From the NCBI GenBank assembly GCA_001000675.1, contig LCHW01000002.1:69310-133309 (forward strand): a stretch of DNA of 64,000 nucleotides. The letters run 5' to 3'. Numbering within the stretch: position 1 is the first letter of the stretch; every line of letters begins with the position of its first letter. Positions 30,407 through 61,459 of this stretch are shown piece after piece. Position numbers and translations under genes: made by a program. The notes beneath the pieces were generated by a model. It was not told the DNA's origin, ran no database searches, and worked only from the letters and a program-made list of their open reading frames with translations. Source of the stretch: Candidatus Wolfebacteria bacterium GW2011_GWE2_44_13 (GTDB lineage: Bacteria; Patescibacteriota; Minisyncoccia; UBA6257; UBA9933).

Positions 30407-32083
30407 TTACCCTGTCGCTGTCGTTGGCCATTCCACCGGTCCCGTAACTCCTTCTACTTCTTCAAACGTAGTCATACCGGCAATAACTTTTAAGATGCCA
30501 TCTTCTTGCATAGTAGTCATGCCATGCTCTCGTGCAAATTTTAAGAATACTTCTTCGCCAGCCATGCTCGCAATCAAATCTTCAAGTCCAGGCTGTTTGG
30601 TGAATAGCTCGTAGATAGCGACACGTCCTTTATATCCAGTGTTGTTACATACTGCGCAACCAACAGGAGCGAAAAGTGTTGGCGTCTTATACGTTTCACG
30701 ATTCACGCGTGCCGGCAATGCATTGATGAACGTGGTAAACTTTGTTTTTAAGTCATTATCAAGCGGCATAGGGACTTTGCATTCTTTGCACAGGCGGCGA
30801 ATAAGACGCTGTGCAATAACGAGGGTAAGTGCTGGCCCAATAGATTGTGGCTTTACGTTAAGATCGAGAAGGCGGGGAATAGCTCCAGCTGCCGAGTTCG
30901 TGTGGAGCGTAGAGAAGACCAAGTGTCCGGTGAGTGCTGCTTGAATAGCAATCTCAGCAGTTTCTTGGTCGCGGATTTCTCCGACAAGAATAATATCTGG
31001 ATCTTGTCGCATAAGTGAACGAAGTCCACTTGCAAACGTATACCCACTTCCTGTGTTAATCTGGGTTTGTTCAATGCCCTCGAGGTGGTATTCGATAGGA
31101 TCTTCAATGGTGATAATCTTTTCTTCTGGGTCCGCCTTTGCGCCAAGGAAGGTATAGAGCGTTGTCGTTTTACCAGAACCAGTAGGACCAGTATTGAGAA
31201 TCATACCGTTTGGGCGGTTAAGTTCAACATTAATAATTGCCAAGTCGTCCTCACGCAATCCTAGTTGGGGGAGGGTAATTTTAATCGAGTCTGGATCAAG
31301 AAGACGCATAACCGCTACTTCGCCAAATTGTGCTGGCGCAATGGCAACACGAACTTCCACATCTTTCTGTGGGAAACGGATAGTAAAACGACCATCCTGG
31401 GCTTCTTTTGTAACGTTCAGTTTTAAATTGGAAAGCAATTTAATACGGGTAAGAAGATACGGATAAAATTCTTTTGTGAACGTAAAAATGTCGTGCAGGT
31501 TGCCGTCAATGCGGAAGCGAAGCTTCCCGTCGTGTTCGCTCGGCTCTAAGTGGATATCCGAAGCACGTGTGCCCATGGCGCCACGCGAAATAATTTCAAG
31601 AATTCCCCCTGCCTTACTAGGGGAGAATTCTTCAGCGGCAAAAACTTCTTTTATACCATCGATAGAATTGAGCTTATCGGCAAGATCAATAATGCGTTGC
31701 TCGATTTGTACTTTTCCAGTAATTTTTTCAGTTGTTTTTGCTGTGTAGCGATAATAGCTCAGCGCGTATTCCATGCTAGCTGGACCTACAATATAATCGG
31801 TGACGGCATAGCCTTGTGCAGCTAGGTCATCAATGGCTTTCTTTGCGTTAGGAGTCGTCGGGTCAAGAGCTACGACAGCAACTTTGCTTGCTTTTCGTTC
31901 AATAGCAGCAACATGAGCGGCGCGTGCGATTTCTTCTGGAATCAATGAAAGCGCCTCGATACTAATAGGCGTTTTTGAAAGCGTGATATATTTTTTCCCG
32001 AGTGCAATTGCGCGATGTTGCGCTTCGCGCTCCTGTGCCTCCTTTCGTATGCGAGCAAGTTTTTGGGTTAGCGTTTCTTCCAT
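30407..32083 (-). CDS. pilB: Type IV pilus assembly ATPase PilB (GspE family).
   Basis: Walker A GPTGSGKTTT, Asp box, Walker B, His box and a tetracysteine motif (CKEC...CAVC). Confidence 0.9.
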   Translation of the reverse strand: MEETLTQKLARIRKEAQEREAQHRAIALGKKYITLSKTPISIEALSLIPEEIARAAHVAAIERKASKVAVVALDPTTPNAKKAIDDLAAQGYAVTDYIVGPASMEYALSYYRYTAKTTEKITGKVQIEQRIIDLADKLNSIDGIKEVFAAEEFSPSKAGGILEIISRGAMGTRASDIHLEPSEHDGKLRFRIDGNLHDIFTFTKEFYPYLLTRIKLLSNLKLNVTKEAQDGRFTIRFPQKDVEVRVAIAPAQFGEVAVMRLLDPDSIKITLPQLGLREDDLAIINVELNRPNGMILNTGPTGSGKTTTLYTFLGAKADPEEKIITIEDPIEYHLEGIEQTQINTGSGYTFASGLRSLMRQDPDIILVGEIRDQETAEIAIQAALTGHLVFSTLHTNSAAGAIPRLLDLNVKPQSIGPALTLVIAQRLIRRLCKECKVPMPLDNDLKTKFTTFINALPARVNRETYKTPTLFAPVGCAVCNNTGYKGRVAIYELFTKQPGLEDLIASMAGEEVFLKFAREHGMTTMQEDGILKVIAGMTTFEEVEGVTGPVEWPTTATG

Positions 32084-47380: not shown

Positions 47381-47499
47381 AAAAAGAACCGCCTTTATGC
47401 GGTTCTTTTTTTATAAATACGCAAGAGATATTCGTAATGCGAGTAGATTTATTGTACAATAGCTTTATTAAAAGCATGGTAACAGTAACATATAAAAAT

Positions 47500-49629
47500 A
47501 TGAAGCGTATTAAATTTTTTTTACTAGCAGTTTTATTACTGGCAGCAACGGGACAATCCACGCAAGCTGCGACTACAGAGGAATTGCAAAATCAGCTTGC
47601 ACAATTAATGGCACAACTGAGTGCATTGCAAGCACAAGTATCGACACCAAGCCAAGGATATGTGTTTGAGAGAAATCTTAAAATAGGTATGCGTGGTACC
47701 GACGTGCAAAAGTTGCAAGAGTTTTTAGTGGAGCAAAAATATTTGAAATTAACTAATACAACAACGTATTTTGGTACACAGACGAAGGCGGCGCTTATCG
47801 CGTGGCAAAAAGCAAAAAATATTTCTCCAGCAATAGGATTTTTCGGGCCGCTTACTCGGGCAAAGATGAATGCGCTATTGGCTGCCGTAGTACCCGCTAC
47901 ACCATCATCCGCAATAATGACAGGCTCTTCTGTTGCAATTAAATTTGCGAGTACGGGGGTGCGAAGAGTAAATGTTTATTTGTGTGATTTGCAAAATAAT
48001 TGCAATACGGTTATCGCAGCAAATATCGCAGTGGTTTCAGGGGATAATACAGTTACGTGGGCAGTTCCTGCAAATATTGTTGCAGGAGCATATAAAATAA
48101 AGGTAGAAGATGTTGCGAATTCGAGTTGGGTAGTATACGCGGAAGTGCCTTTAGTTAAGCCAGTTGCGACTGCAACGTCGACTCCTCCTGCAACACAGCC
48201 GACGATAGTTGCTATCTCGTTACAAACGCCAGTAGCGACGAAAGCGGGAGCATCGCTTGCTATTAAATTTGCAAATAACAATGCAAAGAATGTGAGTATC
48301 TCGCTTTGCTCGGATAGCACGTATTGCGATGTAGTTGTTGCGTCGCGATACGCAGTTACCGATGGTGCTAATAGTGTTTCATGGACGATCCCAAGTGCCA
48401 CACTTGCGAGGGAATATTTCGTTAGAATAAAGGATGCTGATGATGTGAATAGTGCCGAATTTAATAGTGGTCGGTTTGCTATTACAGCAGCTACCACCGT
48501 CGTACCGCCAACATCGGCAACATTTTCAGTACAAACGCCCGTGGCAACGAAAGCTGGTGAAGTGCTCTCAGTCGTATTTACAAGCAGTAAAGCGCGAAAC
48601 GCAAGCGTATCATTGTGCGTAGATGCGCAGAATTGTAGCATAGTGCTTGCGCCAAGAGTCTCCGTCGCATTCGGCACAAATAACTTTAAGTGGACGATTC
48701 CAAGTACCACTCCTGCGAAACAGTACTTTATAAAGATAAAAGATGCCGACAATGTAAATGATCCTATTGGGGCAAGTGGGTTGTTTTCAATTACGTTATC
48801 AGGAGCGCCAACTTCAACAACGCCCATTGCAACAACCTCTTCAATAATTGAGGTGGATACACCCCTTGCTGCCTATGTTGGTAGCCCACTTAACATAAAC
48901 TTTACGAGTGCAAATATACGAAATGTGAGTATTGTACTATGTTCCAATAGTGCGACGTGCGCCATAACAGCAGCTTCAAACTTTGCAGTGGTTGTTGACG
49001 GCTTCAATACATATGCATGGGCAGTTCCAACGACAACAAGTGTAGGTCAGTATTTTATAAAAATGAAAGATGTTAATAGTGCGAGTGGCGAAGAGTTTTT
49101 GAGCGATGTCTTTACGATAGGGGCTGCCATACCAGTACCATCAATTACAATAACACAGCCAGCGAATGTAGTTGTAGAAGGAACGTTGATTGTGAAGTTT
49201 ACTACAAGCAATATTGGTAGTGTGGATGTGTACCTTTGTCCAAGTAAGACCCAGTGCGGGAATGCAATAGAAAATGGGCTTCCTACTACGGATGGGGTTA
49301 ATACATTTAAATGGGTAGTCCCAACATCAACAACCCCAGGGGCATATTATATAAAAGTGGCTAAAGCAGGAAGTGTAACTGCGTATACGTTAACAGCAAA
49401 CACATTTTCAATTGTGGCAGCTCCAGTGGCACGCGTATGTCGTGATGTGAGTGGACTAAGTGAATTATATACAGTGTGTGACGAATCAGAGGAAGCAGTT
49501 TCGGGGCGGTGCGTTCTTTCAAAGGCCCCGTATAGAAGCTTCCCTGGAATTCCTACAATATATGAGAATGGAATGGGTATTATTTGTGGCCAATCGGTGG
49601 TATGGGTCGAGCTTCGATGTTGTAAATAA
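47500..49629 (+). CDS. Secreted/anchored surface protein: signal anchor, coiled coil, peptidoglycan-binding-like domain, six ~95-aa Cys-pair Ig-like tandem repeats and a Cys-rich C-terminal module.
   Basis: MKRIKFFLLAVLLLAATGQSTQA signal, a PG_binding_1-like segment (LKIGMRGTDVQKLQEFLVEQKYL) and six repeats of the form ...V.IKF....ARNVSV.LC.D...C..V.A....V..G.N...W.VP.....Y..KV.D. Start set at ATG 47500. Confidence 0.6.
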   Translation: MKRIKFFLLAVLLLAATGQSTQAATTEELQNQLAQLMAQLSALQAQVSTPSQGYVFERNLKIGMRGTDVQKLQEFLVEQKYLKLTNTTTYFGTQTKAALIAWQKAKNISPAIGFFGPLTRAKMNALLAAVVPATPSSAIMTGSSVAIKFASTGVRRVNVYLCDLQNNCNTVIAANIAVVSGDNTVTWAVPANIVAGAYKIKVEDVANSSWVVYAEVPLVKPVATATSTPPATQPTIVAISLQTPVATKAGASLAIKFANNNAKNVSISLCSDSTYCDVVVASRYAVTDGANSVSWTIPSATLAREYFVRIKDADDVNSAEFNSGRFAITAATTVVPPTSATFSVQTPVATKAGEVLSVVFTSSKARNASVSLCVDAQNCSIVLAPRVSVAFGTNNFKWTIPSTTPAKQYFIKIKDADNVNDPIGASGLFSITLSGAPTSTTPIATTSSIIEVDTPLAAYVGSPLNINFTSANIRNVSIVLCSNSATCAITAASNFAVVVDGFNTYAWAVPTTTSVGQYFIKMKDVNSASGEEFLSDVFTIGAAIPVPSITITQPANVVVEGTLIVKFTTSNIGSVDVYLCPSKTQCGNAIENGLPTTDGVNTFKWVVPTSTTPGAYYIKVAKAGSVTAYTLTANTFSIVAAPVARVCRDVSGLSELYTVCDESEEAVSGRCVLSKAPYRSFPGIPTIYENGMGIICGQSVVWVELRCCK

Positions 49630-51848: not shown

Positions 51849-51917
51849 AAAAGAAGTATACCATATTTATCGAGAGCAATTATCTGTTTTGTGATTGTGT
51901 GATACAATAGTTATATT

Positions 51918-53831
51918 ATGAAATCAACGCGCGGTTTCTCATTACTCGAAACATTACTTTATATCGCTATCTTCGCCATCGTAGGGGGATCACTTTTCGG
52001 AATTCTTACAAACGTAGTGCGTGTTTCTACGACACAAGTATCCAACGATGAAGTTACGAGCCAATTACAATTCGCAATGGAAACAGTCACACGATTAGTG
52101 CGTGAATCATCTGCAATTGAAATTGCAACCACAACCGCAACAACCACGTTAAAGTTGCGCATGGCTAATCCATTAAAAGACCCAACTTGCATCAGCTTGT
52201 CAGGAGGCGTGTTAAAGCTTGCAGAAGGGCCCGATGCATTTCAGGCACAAAATTGTACTGCCGCGACAACTAACATAACGACAGATAACATTGTTGTGGA
52301 CACTGCATTTTTCAAACGCATTGAATTCCCGGGCGGACACGACCAGGTTGCTGTTGATTTACAGTTTTCTAATTTAGGGACAGGAGCGGGAAAGATATCT
52401 CGCGCATTGCGTTCGGGTATTTCACGTGTTTCTGCAGCAACGTTCGATTCCGACTTATTGCCAAGCACGGACAATAATTATGAAATCGGATTTTCTGGTA
52501 CAAAACGCTGGAAGAATATTTCTGTTTCAAATGTTCTAAATCTCGGCGTCATTGCAAGCGACCCAAGCGGAATTGATGGGTCTGTGTACTACAACTCAAC
52601 GAGCAAGACCTTTCGTGGTAAGGCGAACGGCGCATGGAGCGACCTAGGTTCTTCGCTGTGGATTTCTTCGGGCACAAATATGTATTCCAATGTGACGGGT
52701 AATACGGGGGTTGGGACGCTGGCGCCGGCGTATAAATTTGATGTTACCGGAGACGTTCGTTTGGATGGAAATATCGGCATAGCAAGTTCAACACCAAGCA
52801 CTACAAGAGCAATAAACATCGGCAAGACATATAGTGACACAACGGGGTATGGAATATACAACGCAACAACGATAACAGGAGCGCTAACAGCCGCAAGGAG
52901 TGGCTATGGAATGTATAACATACTTACTAGTACTGCCGACAATACTGCATTTGCAAACACCTTGTATGGAACATATAGCTTGGTAAGTAACTCGAGCGGA
53001 ACGGGTTATAACACGGGCTATGGTTCGTATAACAGGATAAATAATAATGATACAACGCTCACGAACGCAAGCTCCTACGGAGGGTATGACTATGTAAGCA
53101 ATGCATCAACTGGCATTCTTACGAATGCGTACGGCAACAATGGGCTTGTGGTTAATGAAACAACGGGAAGTATAGGAACAGCTCGCGGAGTGTATGGGTA
53201 TGTGCGAAACGACCAAGGGACAATAACAACGGCTCGGGCCGTGGACGGGACGGTTTCGCAAAGCGTGGCGGGGGGTACGATAACAACCGGCGTTGGGGGC
53301 TATTTTGACGTGAATCTTACAGCGGGCACACTTACGACTGGCTATGGCGTTTACATTGCGAGCATTGCGGGAACAACGAACTACGGCATATATCAGTCCG
53401 ACAGTACGAATAAGAATTATTTTGCGGGCAACGTCGGTATAGGAACAACAGCGCCAGGGCAAAAGTTATCAGTTGCGGGGACGGTTGAGTCAACTTCGGG
53501 AGGGTTTAAGTTTCCCGATGGGACAACACAAACGAAGGCGATAGAGCGTTCTGTGGTATGCCCGTTCTCGACGGCCAATAGTTGTAATTTTCAGCCGAAT
53601 GAAGGGGTATATTATTTAGCACTTAAGAAGACTGGGCTTTCATATATATGCACAATGAAAAGAGTGGACTATCTTGAAATGATCAACTTTAATGCATGTG
53701 CCGGATATGATTGGAGGTATAATCAAGATGTCGCAAAGCTACAACTATCTTCAGACAATGGATCCTCGTGGTCTAATGCGGGAGTAACATGGGAGTGGGC
53801 GATATATTATGAGCCATATGATTTTCTATAA
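51918..53831 (+). CDS. Type IV pilin-like protein with a large fibre-like C-terminal domain (pilus-associated adhesin candidate).
   Basis: Prepilin leader/cleavage motif MKSTRG|FSLLETLLYIAIFAIVGG. ~600 aa Gly/Thr/Asn/Tyr-rich repeats including GNVGIGTTAPGQKLSVAG, a motif shared with 55232..57319. Confidence 0.6.
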   Translation: MKSTRGFSLLETLLYIAIFAIVGGSLFGILTNVVRVSTTQVSNDEVTSQLQFAMETVTRLVRESSAIEIATTTATTTLKLRMANPLKDPTCISLSGGVLKLAEGPDAFQAQNCTAATTNITTDNIVVDTAFFKRIEFPGGHDQVAVDLQFSNLGTGAGKISRALRSGISRVSAATFDSDLLPSTDNNYEIGFSGTKRWKNISVSNVLNLGVIASDPSGIDGSVYYNSTSKTFRGKANGAWSDLGSSLWISSGTNMYSNVTGNTGVGTLAPAYKFDVTGDVRLDGNIGIASSTPSTTRAINIGKTYSDTTGYGIYNATTITGALTAARSGYGMYNILTSTADNTAFANTLYGTYSLVSNSSGTGYNTGYGSYNRINNNDTTLTNASSYGGYDYVSNASTGILTNAYGNNGLVVNETTGSIGTARGVYGYVRNDQGTITTARAVDGTVSQSVAGGTITTGVGGYFDVNLTAGTLTTGYGVYIASIAGTTNYGIYQSDSTNKNYFAGNVGIGTTAPGQKLSVAGTVESTSGGFKFPDGTTQTKAIERSVVCPFSTANSCNFQPNEGVYYLALKKTGLSYICTMKRVDYLEMINFNACAGYDWRYNQDVAKLQLSSDNGSSWSNAGVTWEWAIYYEPYDFL

Positions 53832-53937
53832 ATAGAAAGACAACGCGCGAGGAATTTCTAAAAATACAAAACCGCATGCATTTTGCATGCGGTTTTGATA
53901 TAATGGAGGAAAAGCGGGAATACCGCATATCACCTAT

Positions 53938-55167
53938 ATGAAGATACACGATATCATAATCAACATAATAAAGGATTCTCGAGGGCAAGATACGCTTGAA
54001 GCGACCATGTCTTGGGATAATAACGGGCAAAGTATGTCCGCAAGTGCGAGTGCTCCGAGTGGAAAGAGCACAGGATCACATGAAGCGTTTGTACTTGAGC
54101 CAGCCAAGGCGCAGGGAATGTTTGCAAGTATTAAGCAGGATGTGCTTGCTAAAGAATTTGCAGATCAAAAAGAATTTGATGAGTTCTTGATTACACTCGA
54201 CGGAACAGAAAACAAGAGCCGCCTTGGAGGTAATCTTATTCTGGTGTTGTCGTTGGCGTTTGCGCATATAAAGGCACAGCAGGAAGGAAAGGAACTGTTT
54301 CGTTATATCCGCGATATTAGCGGGTTGGAAATAGTAGGAACGCGCATGGTGCGCTATCCAATCTTCAATGTTATTAATGGGGGAGCACATGCAAACAATA
54401 AGCTCGACTTTCAAGAGTTTCAGGTTATTCCGATGGTGGAGAGTTTTGCAGAGGCGCTACGGATAGGAAAAGAATTTTATGAAAAGTTAGGTGAAGCAAT
54501 CCGGCAGAAATTTGGTGCAGAGAATGTCACGCTCGGAGACGAAGCAGGATATTCAGCACCGTTTGAAAGCAACGAAGAAGCAATTGCATTGATGAAGTCG
54601 GTAATCGCGGCAAATAATTACCCATTGCGCATTGGTCTTGATGTTGCAGCGACTGGATTTTTCCAAGACGGAGGATATATGGTAGAAGGAAAGCGCATTT
54701 CGGCACAGGAGCTATTGGGCATGCACTACGACCTAATATTCCGCTATAATATTCTGTCACTCGAAGATCCGTTTGAAGAGGAAGCATTTGGAGATTTTAA
54801 GACACTGTATACACGCATAAACCAAGGCAATTTGGACGCGATGCTTATAACAGATGATCTCACGACTACAAATCATACACGGCTTGAGCGGGCTATTACC
54901 GAACAGGTTGGAAACACAATCCTAATCAAGTTGAACCAAATTGGTTCGTTAACCGAAACGTTGCGGGTTATCCGCATGGCATATAGCAACAACTGGAAAG
55001 TTGTTGTTTCTCATCGCAGCGGAGAAACAATGGACGACTTCATCGCAGACCTTGCGGTGGCTGTGGGTGCATGGGGCTTGAAGTCGGGCGCACCAGGCAA
55101 GCCAGAGCGTCTTGTAAAATACGATCGCGTTATCGCAATCGAAGAAATGATTAAGCAGGGAAAGTAA
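53938..55167 (+). CDS. eno: Enolase (phosphopyruvate hydratase), divergent.
   Basis: SGKSTGSHEA..., SHRSGETMD and IKLNQIGSLTET motifs. 409 aa. Confidence 0.8.
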   Translation: MKIHDIIINIIKDSRGQDTLEATMSWDNNGQSMSASASAPSGKSTGSHEAFVLEPAKAQGMFASIKQDVLAKEFADQKEFDEFLITLDGTENKSRLGGNLILVLSLAFAHIKAQQEGKELFRYIRDISGLEIVGTRMVRYPIFNVINGGAHANNKLDFQEFQVIPMVESFAEALRIGKEFYEKLGEAIRQKFGAENVTLGDEAGYSAPFESNEEAIALMKSVIAANNYPLRIGLDVAATGFFQDGGYMVEGKRISAQELLGMHYDLIFRYNILSLEDPFEEEAFGDFKTLYTRINQGNLDAMLITDDLTTTNHTRLERAITEQVGNTILIKLNQIGSLTETLRVIRMAYSNNWKVVVSHRSGETMDDFIADLAVAVGAWGLKSGAPGKPERLVKYDRVIAIEEMIKQGK

Positions 55168-55231
55168 AAGTAATTTAAAATAGCCCGTCAGCATGCTGAC
55201 GGGCTATTTTTATTGTGATATACTTATACAC

Positions 55232-57319
55232 ATGAATACCCGCACAAGAAAGATTGTATATACATCGACTGGTATTGTAATAATAGTAGTAGGAGTTGTC
55301 GTTACACAACAAGGGTTTGCATGGACAAATCCAGCGAGCAACCCACCACTCGGGACGAACACCATAAACATTTCAGGAAGTAAAGTTGGGATAGGAACAA
55401 CAAATCCATTCGGAGTATTTGAATCGTTTACAAATCTCGATATCCCGGCTGTTCGAGGTAATAGCACGGGTGCTTCGGGCGTGGGGGTAAATGGAGAGAG
55501 TACGGCATCCGGAGCGGGAGCGGGCGTTTCGGCAAAGGGATGGAGGGGTGTATATGCGGAGTCAACTGATTTAGTTAATGGATGGGCAGGATATTTTCTC
55601 GGGAGGGGATATTTTAGTGGCAACGTCGGCGTTGGAACGGCAACACTTGATACAAACTATCGCATTACAACGAGCGGGGGAGGTGTAAAAGCAGGGAACA
55701 GTAGTGCAACCCAACCAGCAGGGTATTTTAGTAACGCGGGAGGAGGTCCTGCTATTACTGTGGGAACAGGGGGTATTACACTAGGCGGAGTAAACCAAAC
55801 CGCATGGCCAGTGAGTGCGAGTCAGTGGACGACTTCAGGAGATGATATCTACAAAGCAAATATAGGGAACGTTGGAATCGGAAAAACAAACCCACAAAAT
55901 GCCCTGCATATTTTCACAACGTTACCTGCGGGAGGTCTTGATATTGACGGGACCGCATCTAATTCTATTGTTCGATTTAAGAACAACGGGACATCAAAGG
56001 CGTTTGTTGGCATTGCTAATAGCGCGGGGGCTATTATAAATGGTTCTACTGCTAATGATACCGCAATTAGATTTGATGGTGGTAATTTATTATTTGGATA
56101 TGGAGCAACTGAAGTGGCACGCATAACATCAGGGGGTGATATGGGAATTGGAACGACAGCACCCGAAGCAAAATTGCATGTCGCGGGGAATATTGTTGTA
56201 AACGGAGTAAATATCGGAACAGGGAGTGGTAATATTTCTTCAAACACTGCCGTAGGACTCTATAGCTTATTTGCGAACAGTGGTGGCTATAGTAATAGTG
56301 CATTTGGATCGTCTGCTCTGTTTTCCAATACGTCGGGTATGTATAATACCGCGCTTGGAGGAGGTGCGTTATATTCAAACACCACGGGAGGTTATAATAC
56401 TGCAGTTGGACCAGATACTCTTCGTTTTAATACAACAGGAACATACAATACTGGAGTTGGTTTGGAAGTACTCACGAGCAATACAATTGGCACGGATAAT
56501 ACTGCGATTGGATCGCGTACGCTTCTTTTAAATACTTCCGGAAACCTAAATACCGCGGTTGGTTCAAGAGCACTCTATGCTAATACAGGGAGCTGGAACA
56601 CCGCGGTCGGTGGGTACGCTTTGGACTCGAATACTACGGGTAATTATAATGTTGCGAGCGGATATAATGCACTTACTGCGAATACATTAGGCAGCTTAAA
56701 TACGGCAGTTGGTCCTGGTGCATTGCAATCTAGCATGACTGGGTTAAGTAATACTGCGATTGGACAGAACTCAAATTCAAGCAATACTACGGGGTCATAT
56801 AACGTTTCACTTGGCGCAAGTTCACTTATGTCCAATAGTACCGGATCCAATAATACCGCAGTTGGTTATTTGGCAAACGTGGCGTCTGGTGCTCTTACGA
56901 ATGCAACGGCAATTGGTTACAATGCAATCGTTAACGCAAGTAATAAAGTTCGCATTGGTGGTACGGCAGTAACAGTTATCGAGGGCCAAGTGGGTTGGTC
57001 TATTGGCTCGGATATTCGCCTAAAGCACGACGTCGTAGATAGCGACCTCGGACTAGGATTTATCAATAAATTGCGTCCCGTTTCCTATAAGTTAAATAAT
57101 GGAGACGGCGGATTAAACTACGGATTTATTGCGCAAGAAGTTGAGGCTGCAGTAGGAAAGAAAACGAATATTGTCATGACAGACAATACTCCTGAGATGA
57201 TGAAGACAATGCGCTACACAGACTTGATTGCCCCAATGGTAAAAGCAATTCAGGAACAGCAATTGCAAATAAAAGAGCAAAAAGAGCGAATAGAAAAACT
57301 CGAAGCGCTCATAAAATAA
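55232..57319 (+). CDS. Membrane-anchored fibre protein with YadA-head/Hep_Hag-like NTAVG repeats and a C-terminal peptidase S74 intramolecular-chaperone domain (phage tail-fibre-like).
   Basis: N-terminal TM helix (IVYTSTGIVIIVVGVVV). More than 20 repeats of ..NTAxG..AL..NT.G. C-terminal SDIRLKHDV...GFIAQEVEAAV...DLIAPMVKAIQEQ typical of the S74 IMC domain. Confidence 0.65.
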   Translation: MNTRTRKIVYTSTGIVIIVVGVVVTQQGFAWTNPASNPPLGTNTINISGSKVGIGTTNPFGVFESFTNLDIPAVRGNSTGASGVGVNGESTASGAGAGVSAKGWRGVYAESTDLVNGWAGYFLGRGYFSGNVGVGTATLDTNYRITTSGGGVKAGNSSATQPAGYFSNAGGGPAITVGTGGITLGGVNQTAWPVSASQWTTSGDDIYKANIGNVGIGKTNPQNALHIFTTLPAGGLDIDGTASNSIVRFKNNGTSKAFVGIANSAGAIINGSTANDTAIRFDGGNLLFGYGATEVARITSGGDMGIGTTAPEAKLHVAGNIVVNGVNIGTGSGNISSNTAVGLYSLFANSGGYSNSAFGSSALFSNTSGMYNTALGGGALYSNTTGGYNTAVGPDTLRFNTTGTYNTGVGLEVLTSNTIGTDNTAIGSRTLLLNTSGNLNTAVGSRALYANTGSWNTAVGGYALDSNTTGNYNVASGYNALTANTLGSLNTAVGPGALQSSMTGLSNTAIGQNSNSSNTTGSYNVSLGASSLMSNSTGSNNTAVGYLANVASGALTNATAIGYNAIVNASNKVRIGGTAVTVIEGQVGWSIGSDIRLKHDVVDSDLGLGFINKLRPVSYKLNNGDGGLNYGFIAQEVEAAVGKKTNIVMTDNTPEMMKTMRYTDLIAPMVKAIQEQQLQIKEQKERIEKLEALIK

Positions 57320-57366
57320 CATTAAAATACCGTCAGCCTTGGGCTGACGGTATTTTTTATGTGCAT

Positions 57367-59012: not shown

Positions 59013-59774
59013 ATGAAAAAAACAATAACAATCACAATTATCGCAATCATTGTATTGGTAGGAGTTGGATATGGTGTATGGATGTGGCAAGGGAATCCCG
59101 ATGTAGCGTTGAATGAACAAGCTAGTACATCAACACAACAGGTGAGTGATGAATATGCTGATTGGAAAGTGTATAAAAACGAAACATACGGATTTGAGTT
59201 CAAATATCCCAAGGACTGGGGAATAAAAGAGGAAATTTACAATAGCAATATGGGGGAGGGAGCGTGTGAGACTATTGAGTCGATAGAGCTAATAAATAAA
59301 TCATTAGGCAAGCAAGTCTACGAAGCAGCCCCTCCTGGAGAAAATGTAAATACGTATGTTGAAAAATATGGGAGTGTGCCGATACTGGCGGTTAATGTTA
59401 GAAAAAATGATTGCAACAATGAGAAAAATTTAGGATCACAGGCGAAGGATATTTTAAGTAAGCTTAAAAATGAAGGCGTTAGCTCTCGGCTTGCGGTTGC
59501 TACGGTGAGTCTGCTCCCAGGGTATGGAGAATTAATTTCAGAGAAGCCTAATGTTTGGGAAATGAGAGATGGTTGTCGAGAGAACAATCTGCTAACAGTA
59601 AACGGCAGCAGGGTAATTAAAAGCATTGGTTGCATAGAGGGGGTGGTTCAGAATACATTTGCAACATTCGTGAGTGAGGATAGGTATATAATTCAAATTA
59701 GGGATAGTGCTTCGGAATACGAACGTAGCGGTTATTTTGATAAGATTCTCGCTACGTTTAAACTAACAAAATAA
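59013..59774 (+). CDS. Hypothetical membrane-anchored secreted protein.
   Basis: N-terminal anchor ITITIIAIIVLVGVGYGVWMW. Terminator at 59786..59816. Confidence 0.45.
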   Translation: MKKTITITIIAIIVLVGVGYGVWMWQGNPDVALNEQASTSTQQVSDEYADWKVYKNETYGFEFKYPKDWGIKEEIYNSNMGEGACETIESIELINKSLGKQVYEAAPPGENVNTYVEKYGSVPILAVNVRKNDCNNEKNLGSQAKDILSKLKNEGVSSRLAVATVSLLPGYGELISEKPNVWEMRDGCRENNLLTVNGSRVIKSIGCIEGVVQNTFATFVSEDRYIIQIRDSASEYERSGYFDKILATFKLTK

Positions 59775-59890: not shown

Positions 59891-61459
59891 ATGGATAAGA
59901 CACCATTGAAAAAAGTAAGAATGATGGATATTGTGCGTAAGCAGCCGCAGTCAGAGCGCAAAGAAATAAATCCGCTTTTGCGGAGTGAACAACGCGTTCC
60001 GTTTTCTATTGAAAAAAAAGAAGAGCCACTACGCGCAGAGTTACATGAAGAGCCTGTGAAAATGCATACACATGCAGCTATATCACATACTTCAACAGAA
60101 ACAATAGGCGAGGAACGGTACGAAAAAGAGCTTGTTACTGAGCACGTTCCACCACGCATATTGGAAGAACGCATACCTGCAGAAGCGTCTTCACTAGAAT
60201 TAGATAGGCCAATCGCGTATATTCCGAAGGAAAAGCCATCAAAAGAAGAGAAGAAGATGTTCGAGCGCATCGAAAAGAGGGAGCGCTCACAACGAAAAGA
60301 AAAAGAAGGCTCACGAGGAAAAGGGAAAAGTATTTTTGTGTGGGCAACGTCATGTATCCTGCTCGGCTTAGGTGCGTACATTGCTCTTGCTGTTTTGCCG
60401 CGCGCAGAGATAATGCTTATTGCTAAAAAAGTAGAGTGGGGCTATGCCAATACAATCGGCGCGAATACAAAAATAGCAGAGGTAGATGTGGCTACTCGAC
60501 AAATTCCCGTTGCAGTATTTTTGGAAAAGAAAACAAACTCGTTTAAATTTCCAGCAACTGGAGCGGGGAAGAGCATTGAACGAAAAGCTACGGGGAAAGT
60601 AACAATTTACAACGAGTTTAGTGAAAGTACGCAGCCACTTGTTGCGGGTACGCGATTAGAAACTCCTGATGGGAAAATATTTCGTTTAGTTGAGCGTATA
60701 GTCGTTCCAGGAGCAAAAAAGACTGGAGGAGAGTTTGTCCCAACAGGCATAGAGGCGGACGTAGTAGCAGATAAGGCGGGTGAATCGTACAACATAAGCG
60801 CAGTAAATAAATTTACGATTCCAGGGTTTGCAGGGACTACGAAATTTGACGGCTTCTACGCAAGCTCAAAAGATGCAATGACGGGCGGGTTTATCGGAGA
60901 AGGTAAGTATCCAACCGCAGAAGATATTAAAACAGCAAAAGAAAGTGCAAAGAGTCAGATGCAGGGAGTGATTGAGTCGTTCTTGCAAACGCTAGTGCTC
61001 GATGGATTCAAAACAATAGAAAGTAGCAAAAGATACGCCGTTACCAAGGAAATGGTAAACGAGGCTGTTGATGCAGAGGGGAATTTCTCTGTATATATAG
61101 AAGCCGAAGGAGGTATTGATGCGCTTAAGGAAGAGCATGTATTAGAGCTCATGACCGCTTTAGCACGACAGGTAAACGGAGAAGAATACGTGATAAAGGA
61201 ACACACACTTTCCTATGGAGATATCGCCATAGATGCAAAAGCGGGGACTATATCACTTCCGGTTGATTTTAAGGGAACATTTTGGAAGCCAGTTAATCTG
61301 GAAGAGTTCAAAAGCGCGGTTATGGGGAAGACGCAGGACGAACTAAAAGCATATATATTCAGCTCAACAAGTATAGAGCGAGCCGATGTCGCCTTGTGGC
61401 CAGGATGGGTGCAAAAAGTCCCAACCGACATTGAACGAGTAAAAGTGGAATTGCAGTAA
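59891..61459 (+). CDS. Hypothetical protein with a charged N-terminal region, one TM helix and a large extracytoplasmic domain.
   Basis: 522 aa ORF with TM segment FVWATSCILLGLGAYIALAVL. Terminator at 61466..61495. Confidence 0.45.
   Translation: MDKTPLKKVRMMDIVRKQPQSERKEINPLLRSEQRVPFSIEKKEEPLRAELHEEPVKMHTHAAISHTSTETIGEERYEKELVTEHVPPRILEERIPAEASSLELDRPIAYIPKEKPSKEEKKMFERIEKRERSQRKEKEGSRGKGKSIFVWATSCILLGLGAYIALAVLPRAEIMLIAKKVEWGYANTIGANTKIAEVDVATRQIPVAVFLEKKTNSFKFPATGAGKSIERKATGKVTIYNEFSESTQPLVAGTRLETPDGKIFRLVERIVVPGAKKTGGEFVPTGIEADVVADKAGESYNISAVNKFTIPGFAGTTKFDGFYASSKDAMTGGFIGEGKYPTAEDIKTAKESAKSQMQGVIESFLQTLVLDGFKTIESSKRYAVTKEMVNEAVDAEGNFSVYIEAEGGIDALKEEHVLELMTALARQVNGEEYVIKEHTLSYGDIAIDAKAGTISLPVDFKGTFWKPVNLEEFKSAVMGKTQDELKAYIFSSTSIERADVALWPGWVQKVPTDIERVKVELQ

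Follow-up and report, generated by a model that had tools for sequence, protein, structure and literature searches.

Two fibre genes flank enolase in a Candidatus Wolfebacteria genome: a probable pilin-borne adhesin and an S74-type exported fibre

In a stretch of 64,000 nucleotides (nt) from Candidatus Wolfebacteria bacterium GW2011_GWE2_44_13 (GenBank assembly GCA_001000675.1, contig LCHW01000002.1, positions 69,310 to 133,309 of the forward strand), the enolase gene eno lies between two large genes, here called A and B, whose products both resemble fibres. How are two such proteins carried by one cell, and what do they serve? We call the whole stretch the window and give all positions in its coordinates; labels beginning with L denote genomic loci of relatives and those beginning with P relatives among database proteins. 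A first-pass annotation, made from the letters of the window, had placed two fibre genes on either side of enolase, and both open reading frames (ORFs) were indeed found there with eno between them:

51918..53831, + strand: gene A, a probable modular type IV pilin of 637 amino acids (aa) with a fibre module (stop codon included; ORF list)
53938..55167, + strand: eno (enolase), a housekeeping gene (TIGR01060, 332 bits; Enolase_N and Enolase_C)
55232..57319, + strand: gene B, an exported fibre of 695 aa ending in an S74 domain (stop codon included; ORF list; the same 695-aa product appears in other gene calls, P0048)

Our reading, to which we give a probability of roughly 0.68, is that A is a probably trimeric minor-pilin adhesin displayed by a pilus, that B is an exported fibre folded by its S74 domain, and that both serve host attachment. 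It draws on the domain content of the two proteins, the distribution of their families, gene order, the breakpoint of conservation, the linkage of A-type with B-type genes and the pilus-operon context of both.

Gene A divides into the following parts:

51918..51995, + strand: class III (prepilin) signal, residues 1-26 (N_methyl; alignment of relatives)
51936..52427, + strand: pilin module, an alpha-1 helix and a beta-sheet, with Cys91 and Cys113 (AlphaFold2 model; weak Foldseek and NCBIfam matches)
52425..52517, + strand: junction motif, residues 170-200, leading from the pilin module to the fibre (near-invariant in the alignment)
52518..52772, + strand: small beta unit with the first GxxGVGTxxPxxKF motif, residues 201-285 (conservation with relatives stops inside it or shortly ahead of it)
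52773..53417, + strand: variable shaft, residues 286-500, degenerate repeats of about 19 residues with YGxY (motif positions; autocorrelation)
53418..53546, + strand: neck, residues 501-543, YFAGNVGIGTTAPGQKLSVAGTVESTSGGFKFPDGTTQTKA (phmmer against the PDB)
53547..53828, + strand: orphan tip domain, residues 544-637 (homology search; AlphaFold2)

The protein begins with the leader MKSTRG followed by FSLLETLLYIAIFAIVGG, with predicted cleavage between G6 and F7, Glu at +5 and the start of a hydrophobic alpha-1 helix; the basic leader, Phe at +1, Glu at +5 and hydrophobic stretch of a class III signal are thus all present. The Pfam family N_methyl (PF07963) matched at 22.4 bits against a cutoff of 21.2 (E 8.4e-5), and weak NCBIfam matches to gspJ, ComGE and ComGF fell on the same N-terminus. 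The prepilin signal, as the first-pass annotation had proposed it, is convincing at the family level because F7 (+1), L9 (+3) and E11 (+5) are invariant across 26 aligned relatives, whose N_methyl scores reach 27.7 bits. An AlphaFold2 model of residues 1-300, built with the family alignment, showed a 55-residue helix (residues 9-63) packed on a beta-sheet (residues 64-169) with a predicted local distance difference test score (pLDDT) of 80-89. Its pilin module gave as highest-probability Foldseek matches the GspJ-type pseudopilins EpsJ and XcpW and the modular pilin PilB of S. sanguinis. On this model we treat residues 1-170 as a pilin-like fold, short of proof. A pilin module joined to a non-pilus module is what defines a modular pilin, and here residues 1-170 are followed by 467 residues of fibre and tip. 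The roughly 600 aa of repeats at first ascribed to A must be shortened, since residues 1-170 are modelled as pilin-like and the compositionally biased part is residues 171-543, 65% of which are G, T, N, Y, S or A. The identical protein in NCBI is named 'cell wall surface anchor family protein [uncultured bacterium]'.

The first ~200-280 residues of A are shared by 46 homologues (up to 79% identity), which then diverge. Their C-termini carry Peptidase_S74 (in some directly after the carrier, in proteins of 386-435 aa), in one case a Kelch propeller, and in many cases nothing annotated, so that orthologues have the architectures N_methyl plus Peptidase_S74 and N_methyl plus Kelch. Between carrier and fibre stands the junction motif RVSAATFDSDLLPxxDNxYExG...RWKN (RVSAATFDSDLLP...RWKN in A itself), in which R170, A173, A174, F176, D177, P182, G191 and W198 are invariant. 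Using this motif as a pattern on one genome per species, we confirmed 133 copies of the A module in species-representative genomes. Of the loci listed, nearly all carry a Patescibacteria label (Wolfe-, Colwell-, Harrison-, Lipton- and Brennerbacteria, Paceibacterota and others), and their ORFs range from 233 to 1675 aa. The architecture had been called unusual; that description did not hold, given this number of places and the 29 prepilin-S74 proteins already catalogued (Raynaud et al., 2021; PMC8179133).

Several of these loci tie the family to pilus machinery. In L061 and L046 PilM_2, PilN, PilO and a T2SSE ATPase follow directly after the A-type gene, and in L022 and L040 that gene lies within pilB-pilC-prepilin clusters; in L022, where the cluster contains pilB and pilC (T2SSF), it stands beside a second modular pilin (N_methyl plus NHL propeller). 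This context is the strongest evidence that members of the A family are real pilus subunits. The association with pilus genes is a property of the family; the window itself holds a lone T2SSE gene 20 kb away.

Beyond the carrier, conservation stops. Protein alignments of A with most relatives end at residues ~200-280, and DNA similarity to Wolfebacteria loci ends at 52447-52718. The shaft that follows has YGxY at residues 311, 330, 350, 368, 387, 476 and 489, with autocorrelation peaks at periods of 18-19 and 36; it gave no Pfam or PHROG match, the whole of A gave none in PHROGs, and a Pfam and motif search of A found neither a Peptidase_S74 domain nor an SDxxxK motif. The neck matched PDB entry 8OND (Bd2133, a trimeric Bdellovibrio fibre) at E 2e-10 by phmmer, the sole match in a PDB sequence search with A. 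By our own mapping onto the crystallised construct (PMC10769870), the neck would correspond to the end of the second beta-helix domain of Bd2133, before its stalk and tip, so that residues 544-637 of A would stand where the tip of Bd2133 is. This tip domain contains four cysteines (548, 556, 578, 594). An exhaustive phmmer search of 1.84 billion representative proteins with residues 541-637 found no relative besides the protein itself, and the single-sequence AlphaFold2 model of residues 495-637 was unusable (pLDDT 35.8). Matches of the tip to P0168-P0170 were rejected as artefacts, being sums of matches of at most 13.5 bits to PKD/Calx-beta repeat proteins. The tip also carries an Asp-box-like SSDNGSSW (S-x-D-x-G-x-x-W; residues 604-611, 53727-53750), the motif behind its spurious repeat matches to the giant Calx-beta/BNR protein P0169.

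What lies at the same place in related genomes? Wolfebacteria genomes keep the order polA (-), A-type gene, eno, gpmI (-); the comparison of gene order around eno in relatives that the first-pass annotation had suggested recovered the series polA-A-eno. While polA, eno and gpmI are 71-77% identical in DNA to the Candidatus Wolfebacteria loci along their whole length, A resembles its slot relatives over its first 530-800 nt only (~69% identity), with no DNA similarity detectable beyond. The identity of the three flanking genes, together with the shared gene order, assigns the window to a Wolfebacteria-like member of the Patescibacteria. The slot holds a 396-aa pilin-S74 protein in L007/L095, a 421-aa pilin-S74 protein in L008/L085, a 491-aa protein lacking S74, with an rve-type insertion sequence behind it, in L006, and the 637-aa version with the orphan tip in the window. 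Past about residue 180-280, A therefore appears to behave, at the level of sequence, as an exchangeable cassette. Exchange would most likely proceed by recombination, since the window has no repeat structure of the kind used in switching by a retroelement or an invertase: the repeats found for A and B were terminator palindromes and weak internal repeats in B only. A diversity-generating retroelement or a shufflon was considered and rejected, as the window contained no template/variable repeat pairs and no inverted cassettes for either gene. As a separate observation, the rve-family insertion sequence between A-type gene and eno occupies 7546-8622 of L006 (= 11546-12622 of L001; Wolfebacteria RIFOXYD12_FULL_48_21). 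L006 is also the one syntenic locus without a B-type gene after eno, and the same genome has a second, adjacent A-type/B-type pair (L005).

Gene B is built as follows:

55232..55348, + strand: B-type N-terminus, residues to 39 (alignment of B-type relatives; pattern matches)
55349..56236, + strand: N-terminal beta-rich region, residues 40-335, with several GxxG[IV]G (motif positions)
56243..56911, + strand: about 13 repeats of 17 residues, NTAVGxxALxxNTTGxY, residues 338-560 (motif spacing)
57008..57154, + strand: Peptidase_S74 (PF13884), residues 593-641 (Pfam 45.4 bits, cutoff 22)
57155..57316, + strand: remainder of the chaperone region, a charged heptad-like tail (QQLQIKEQKERIEKLEALIK; coiled-coil character judged by eye)

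The start at 55232, as originally called, is the real one, because the ATG of the longer ORF (55193) falls within the loop of the terminator hairpin of eno. The N-terminus consists of a basic n-region, a hydrophobic segment, an AXA-like GFA before a W, and then A-W-T-x-P-x-x-x-P-P (residues 30-39), of which A30, W31, T32, P34, P38 and P39 are invariant in the alignment of B-type relatives; by inspection, the signal would be cleaved between GFA and W. Relatives of this N-module are few and mostly Wolfebacteria-like; in a homology search with it, 8 of the 120 listed matches had AWTxPxxxPP. The N-terminal 333 residues matched nothing in Pfam, as was the case for the protein P0033, and residues 279-344 weakly matched the Bd2133 chain (8OND; E 0.0022).

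The rest of B is common property. More than 7,600 homologues exist, labelled in their sources 'tail fiber domain-containing protein' or 'trimeric autotransporter adhesin', and many have a precomputed match to PF26696. Because the best 120 of them share residues ~336-693 only and none has the N-terminus, B is, on these alignments, a chimera of a lineage-restricted N-module and a widely shared repeat shaft with S74. Against PHROGs it matched tail spike, virion structural and tail fibre families (1e-59 to 3e-4). The repeats, of which more than 20 had been counted in the first pass, come to 13 successive motifs spaced 16-17 residues apart (autocorrelation 0.40 at period 17). The chaperone domain recognised at the end of B was confirmed with a Pfam score well over its cutoff together with the Ser-Lys catalytic motif SDxxxK (S593-D-I-R-L-K598). 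The two profile matches that were said to decide the matter, N_methyl in A and Peptidase_S74 in B, thus both lie above cutoff.

The likeness to YadA heads or Hep_Hag repeats did not survive: PF05658 is not listed for B at E <= 0.1, and at that threshold Peptidase_S74 is the sole Pfam family, with no anchor domain. In YadA-type trimeric autotransporter adhesins the head repeat goes with a C-terminal outer-membrane anchor, and it is this anchor that defines the class. PF05658 is present in two distant B homologues (P0049 and P0056), and the repeats of B may be remotely related to it. Four further homologues of 945-986 aa (P0059, P0098, P0112 and P0153) have a different prepilin N-terminus, e.g. 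GFSLLEMAIAVGVSG, ahead of B-like repeats; Peptidase_S74 is precomputed in three of the four, and P0153 has a Pfam match with no BLASTP alignment to B listed. It seems that pilin-fibre-S74 fusions arose on at least two different pilin carriers.

The motif GxxGIGTxxPxxKL occurs, by strict pattern, twice in A and twice in B, as the first-pass annotation had noticed, and in this respect the two belong to the same fibre class on two carriers. The motif is generic in this class, with three copies in Bd2133, and is thus no evidence that A and B are specific paralogues. Overall, the two proteins resemble each other weakly (BLASTP E 4e-6 at 30% identity, over sequence of biased composition).

A link of another kind does connect them. 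Behind eno stands a B-type gene coding for 440 aa in L007/L095, for 671 aa in L008 and for 1016 aa in L085; in L005/L089 a B-type gene lies directly beside the second A-type gene, and in L017 and L025 one lies near an A-type gene. In all of these (L005/L089, L007/L095, L008/L085, L017, L025) the B-type gene is next to, or one gene from, the A-type gene, which makes 5 of 80 retrieved A-type loci, all from closer relatives. The pattern of the B-type N-terminus gave more than 600 matches in metagenome contigs, against a roughly estimated chance expectation of the order of ten; 23 were confirmed, and several of those with enough flanking DNA were the same syntenic loci. The B-type gene of L105 is part of a pilus operon confirmed by Pfam (three N_methyl proteins, T2SSE, T2SSF and PilM_2), and the match in L092 is probably also in a pilus operon. 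A-type and B-type genes are therefore a recurring pair in closer relatives, each type occurring in pilus operons as well, and the link between the two genes proposed in the first pass was upheld. The C-termini of B-type proteins vary (cysteine-rich ends, a weak collagen-like match, S74), and the N-terminal AXA followed by WTxPxxxPP marks a second carrier module. Positions 1-4411 of L085 and 5665-10075 of L008, a stretch of 4.4 kb that takes in the A-type gene, eno and 1.4 kb from the start of the B-type gene, match at 99.9% identity. Inside the B-type shaft all similarity is then lost abruptly, and the downstream genes differ, which reflects either recent recombination between strains within the shaft or a break in the assembly at a repeat.

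Two further observations concern B-type genes or their N-terminal motif. An unannotated family with the motif AATNIDSTYR[YW]AWND.IGWIDF (L092 5229-6107 and L105 6870-7733; related GWAYNDAIGWISFD in L106 153-791), without a Pfam match, is encoded directly upstream of the B-type gene in both L105 and L106; in L092 its gene is close to a truncated B-type match. Small pilus-operon proteins in L022 (9172-9699) and L040 (4016-4654) have a hydrophobic segment followed by AITFTGPTEDPSGGNP or ALSAFIPPTSSPPTANP, a looser form of the B-type N-terminus, and the N-terminal motif family may extend beyond fibre proteins.

The surroundings of the two genes in the window contain four further features that bear on their reading:

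53867..53897, no strand assigned: palindromic, terminator-like hairpin 3' of A (14-pair stem)
55177..55210, no strand assigned: terminator-like hairpin 3' of eno (15-pair stem, with the ATG at 55193 in its loop)
57324..57356, no strand assigned: terminator-like hairpin between B and the convergent gpmI (15-pair stem)
30407..32083, - strand: PilB-type assembly ATPase, the sole pilus-machinery gene seen in the window (T2SSE 386 bits and a weak MshEN match)

Because A, eno and B each end in a long palindromic hairpin of their own, they look like three separate transcription units, and eno itself is incidental to the fibre genes. At the hairpin 3' of A, 31-45 nt are also kept behind the A-type genes of L005 and L006. 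Similar extended -10-like elements lie 7-9 nt before both fibre genes (A, TGTGATACAAT, within 51889-51917; B, TGTGATATACT, within 55196-55231), and the short gap before either ATG shows, by eye, no obvious ribosome-binding site; with these two features, the mRNAs of A and B may have little or no leader. Around the fibre genes lie polA, eno, gpmI and genes for ribosomal proteins, whose order is kept in Wolfebacteria; base composition is even and GC content unremarkable across the region. The pilB gene that the first-pass annotation had cited from the same window is there, yet it lies ~20 kb from A and alone, between a beta-CASP ribonuclease-like gene and KH/S16 ribosomal-protein genes, and has no pilC, pilM or pilin gene as a neighbour. 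A is the only ORF in the window with a prepilin motif. The window proteins that were scanned, from 64 kb of a contig measuring 789 kb or more, included no recognisable prepilin peptidase.

Just upstream of polA, a 730-aa exported protein (47437-49629, +) combines PG_binding_1, about five tandem immunoglobulin-like repeats of ~100 residues and a cysteine-rich C-terminus; Wolfebacteria relatives have different, shorter proteins at this position. A 522-aa protein (59891-61459, +) has a weak GlxA beta-barrel match. Its relatives, recorded as 'Baseplate_J (faint)', are encoded beyond the 3' side of gpmI in L001-L003, L085 and L095; between gpmI and this gene, the window has a 253-aa PsbP_2-like ORF (59013-59774).

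How, then, might the two proteins work? The processing of A and B, the formation of trimers, the position in the pilus and the binding of a ligand are steps that we infer. A would be exported and cut by prepilin peptidase between G6 and F7. By its alpha-1 helix it would be built into a type IV pilus, with the tip as the likeliest place and a homotrimer as the likeliest form, on the pattern of CofB and TcpB. It would trimerise through its fibre part, followed by the neck and then the lineage-unique, cysteine-containing tip, and this tip would bind a surface ligand on the organism to which the Wolfebacteria-like episymbiont attaches. A trimeric state of A is suggested by the homology to Bd2133 and by the S74-bearing orthologues (L007, L008, L085, L095). 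B would leave the cell by the Sec route, its S74 domain would drive the folding of a trimer, and this domain would then cut itself off at S593, by analogy with characterised S74 proteins. Attachment, the role given to the pair in the first pass, is probably still the most reasonable function.

Several findings weigh against this account. The N_methyl score of A exceeds its cutoff by just 1.2 bits, and a Foldseek search of the PDB with its pilin module returned nothing at E <= 0.001 (best E ~0.1, GspJ-type pseudopilins). A has no S74 domain, so its trimeric state rests on the homology of a 43-residue neck and on orthologues; its tip has neither homologues nor a usable model, and ligand binding is purely what we infer. 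A does not lie in a pilus operon in the window, where the ATPase 20 kb off is the sole machinery. Finally, the linkage of A-type and B-type genes, seen in 5 of 80 loci and in close relatives throughout, may reflect shared ancestry and not function.

Some of these points lend themselves to a different reading, our main rival, in which the prepilin N-terminus of A is an export signal and membrane anchor only, a use that non-pilus surface proteins also make of class III signals; a trimeric fibre would then stand on the membrane and reach through the wall, never entering a pilus, and B would be anchored independently. The place of A among housekeeping genes, with its own terminator and far from any pilus operon, agrees with this, as does the source record name 'cell wall surface anchor family protein'. 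The hydrophobic segment of B could be an uncleaved signal-anchor (it was first described as a transmembrane anchor), and the three alpha-1 helices of a C3 trimer do not, as we see it, obviously suit a helical filament. We nevertheless consider this reading unlikely. The Glu at +5 is invariant in the A family, and this residue of type IV pilins matters for filament assembly, not for export. Members of the family are embedded among prepilins, pilM/N/O and pilB/C in several genomes, and homotrimeric minor pilins that enter pili are documented in CofB and TcpB. That B and the fibre part of A are remnants of prophage tail fibres or tail spikes is far less probable again, and a prophage origin was rejected on gene context. 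The tail spike, virion structural and tail fibre families matched by B and the S74 domain, typical of phage fibres and endosialidases, would fit such an origin; however, no other phage gene lies near them in the window, gene order is conserved with Wolfebacteria, and B has an export signal and a cell-type N-module that recurs at the same slot in relatives. GC content is unremarkable, A has no PHROG match, and cellular S74 fibres are known in Bdellovibrio.

It is also conceivable that A and B form one device in two parts, like CofB with CofJ or TcpB with TcpF, in which the trimeric tip protein A captures or exports a trimeric B that docks by WTxPxxxPP. We find this doubtful, more so than a mere anchor for A. 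It has on its side the A-type/B-type neighbours in closer relatives, the B-type gene of the L105 pilus operon, which holds the place of the A-type genes in L022 and L040, the N-terminus of B, invariant while the remainder varies, and the precedent of an N-terminal peptide docking on a trimeric minor pilin. This support comes from gene position, sequence and precedent. Against it, 75 of the 80 A-type loci have no B-type neighbour within 6 kb, and the conserved peptide of B could equally be a wall-spanning or processing element. As the C-terminal part of A is variable, the peptide would have to bind its conserved N-terminal half, unlike the situation in CofB and TcpB. An extended form of the same thought, just as speculative, is that Wolfebacteria-like episymbionts mount trimeric receptor-binding modules of the phage-tail-fibre kind on retractile type IV pili, that a swap of the C-terminal cassette in the fixed chromosomal slot resets host range, and that B, as a dedicated partner, docks onto the trimeric pilin or is exported by it through the invariant mature peptide WTxPxxxPP. 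Under that long-odds proposal, A and B would be a monoderm analogue of CofB/CofJ and TcpB/TcpF made from unrelated parts.

Returning to A as a pilus-displayed adhesin and B as an exported fibre, both belong to kinds of protein already described. The exchange of cassettes in a fixed slot, the B-type N-module and the recurrent linkage of A-type genes with B-type genes and pilus operons may be new with respect to the literature that could be searched, in which we found no work uniting three or more of pilin, S74, intramolecular chaperone and Patescibacteria. To our knowledge, how the ultrasmall bacteria of the candidate phyla radiation find and hold their hosts is largely obscure, and the determinants of pilus specificity have not been defined. 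Swappable ends and a link to pili fit a role in recognising host cells, and our analysis supplies concrete candidates in uncultivated Wolfebacteria and Paceibacteria: a pilin carrier with exchangeable fibre ends and a linked second fibre type. Current views are not overturned; members and context are added to known kinds, with predictions that can be tested, and two literatures treated separately, that on modular pilins and that on mosaic adhesive trimer (MAT) fibres, are connected. For cultivated Saccharibacteria, type IV pili are reported to drive episymbiosis.

Modular pilins are the first point of comparison. A survey counted over 1,200 pilins onto which modules are grafted and sorted them into 264 architectures; they are common in the candidate phyla radiation, and the 15 representatives shown include a Candidatus Wolfebacteria protein (Raynaud et al., 2021; PMC8179133). 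Prepilin plus S74 (IPR012902-IPR030392) is the sixth commonest architecture of that survey with its 29 proteins, and 4 and 3 further proteins have one or two IPR008640 domains in between (PMC8179133). Like these, A has an N-terminal pilin module with a graft, and its orthologues at the same locus are exactly prepilin plus S74. Unlike them, A has no database-recognisable module, since its tip is an orphan and its shaft unannotated, and a domain-based survey would therefore miss it. The survey took S74 on pilins for 'peptidase activity' and drew no parallel to tail fibres; the fixed-locus exchange and pilus-operon context described here for the A family are likewise absent from it (PMC8179133). 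On our reading, S74 on pilins is most simply the trimer-folding chaperone of a fibre and not a 'peptidase effector'.

In the MAT fibres of Bdellovibrio, which number 13 S74 and 8 non-S74 members, the signal peptide is followed by a conserved N-domain and a trimeric shaft, and the tips can be interchanged; 'tip swapping' was proposed (Caulton et al., 2024; PMC10769870). The crystal structure of Bd2133 (8OND) is a trimer in which two beta-helix domains are followed by a short stalk and then a beta-sandwich tip. S74 is described as a chaperone that ensures productive trimerisation, and cellular S74 fibres are established in Bdellovibrio (PMC10769870). S74 is typical of phage fibres and endosialidases (Pfam description; PMC10769870). 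A and B share with MAT proteins a conserved N-terminal carrier, a beta-rich shaft with motifs of the GxxGIGTxxPxxKL type and an S74 or alternative tip, A resembling a non-S74 and B an S74 member on different carriers; A even has the same generic label ('cell wall surface anchor'). Homology of the shaft to solved fibres, found in A 501-543 and B 279-344, is at the sequence level. Where MAT proteins have a Sec signal and a beta-rich N-domain of ~130 aa, however, A has a type IV pilin module and B a different, lineage-restricted N-module, and the hosts differ as well, a predatory diderm on the one hand and a Wolfebacteria-like ultrasmall bacterium on the other. The S74 'tail fiber domain-containing protein' family overlaps with B in residues 336-695, which align with thousands of members from many phyla and phages; the first ~335 residues of B, including AWTxPxxxPP, are not in common.

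CofB of the CFA/III pilus of enterotoxigenic Escherichia coli and TcpB of the toxin-coregulated pilus (TCP) of V. cholerae are homotrimeric minor pilins at the pilus tip that initiate pilus assembly and on which the secreted partners CofJ and TcpF dock by a flexible N-terminus. They show that a pilus can take in a trimeric pilin fusion. No homology of A to CofB or TcpB appeared in the PDB sequence search or among the top 50 listed Foldseek matches, and these are type IVb systems of diderms whose trimerising domains (beta-repeat, H-type lectin) are unrelated to tail-fibre shafts or S74. Trimer and docking are documented there and putative in A and B. The likeness is functional and architectural: a large minor pilin made of a pilin module and beta-rich domains, and a separate secreted partner. 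By this analogy, CofB and TcpB offer the best mechanistic model both for the display of a trimeric pilin fusion and for a possible partnership of A and B.

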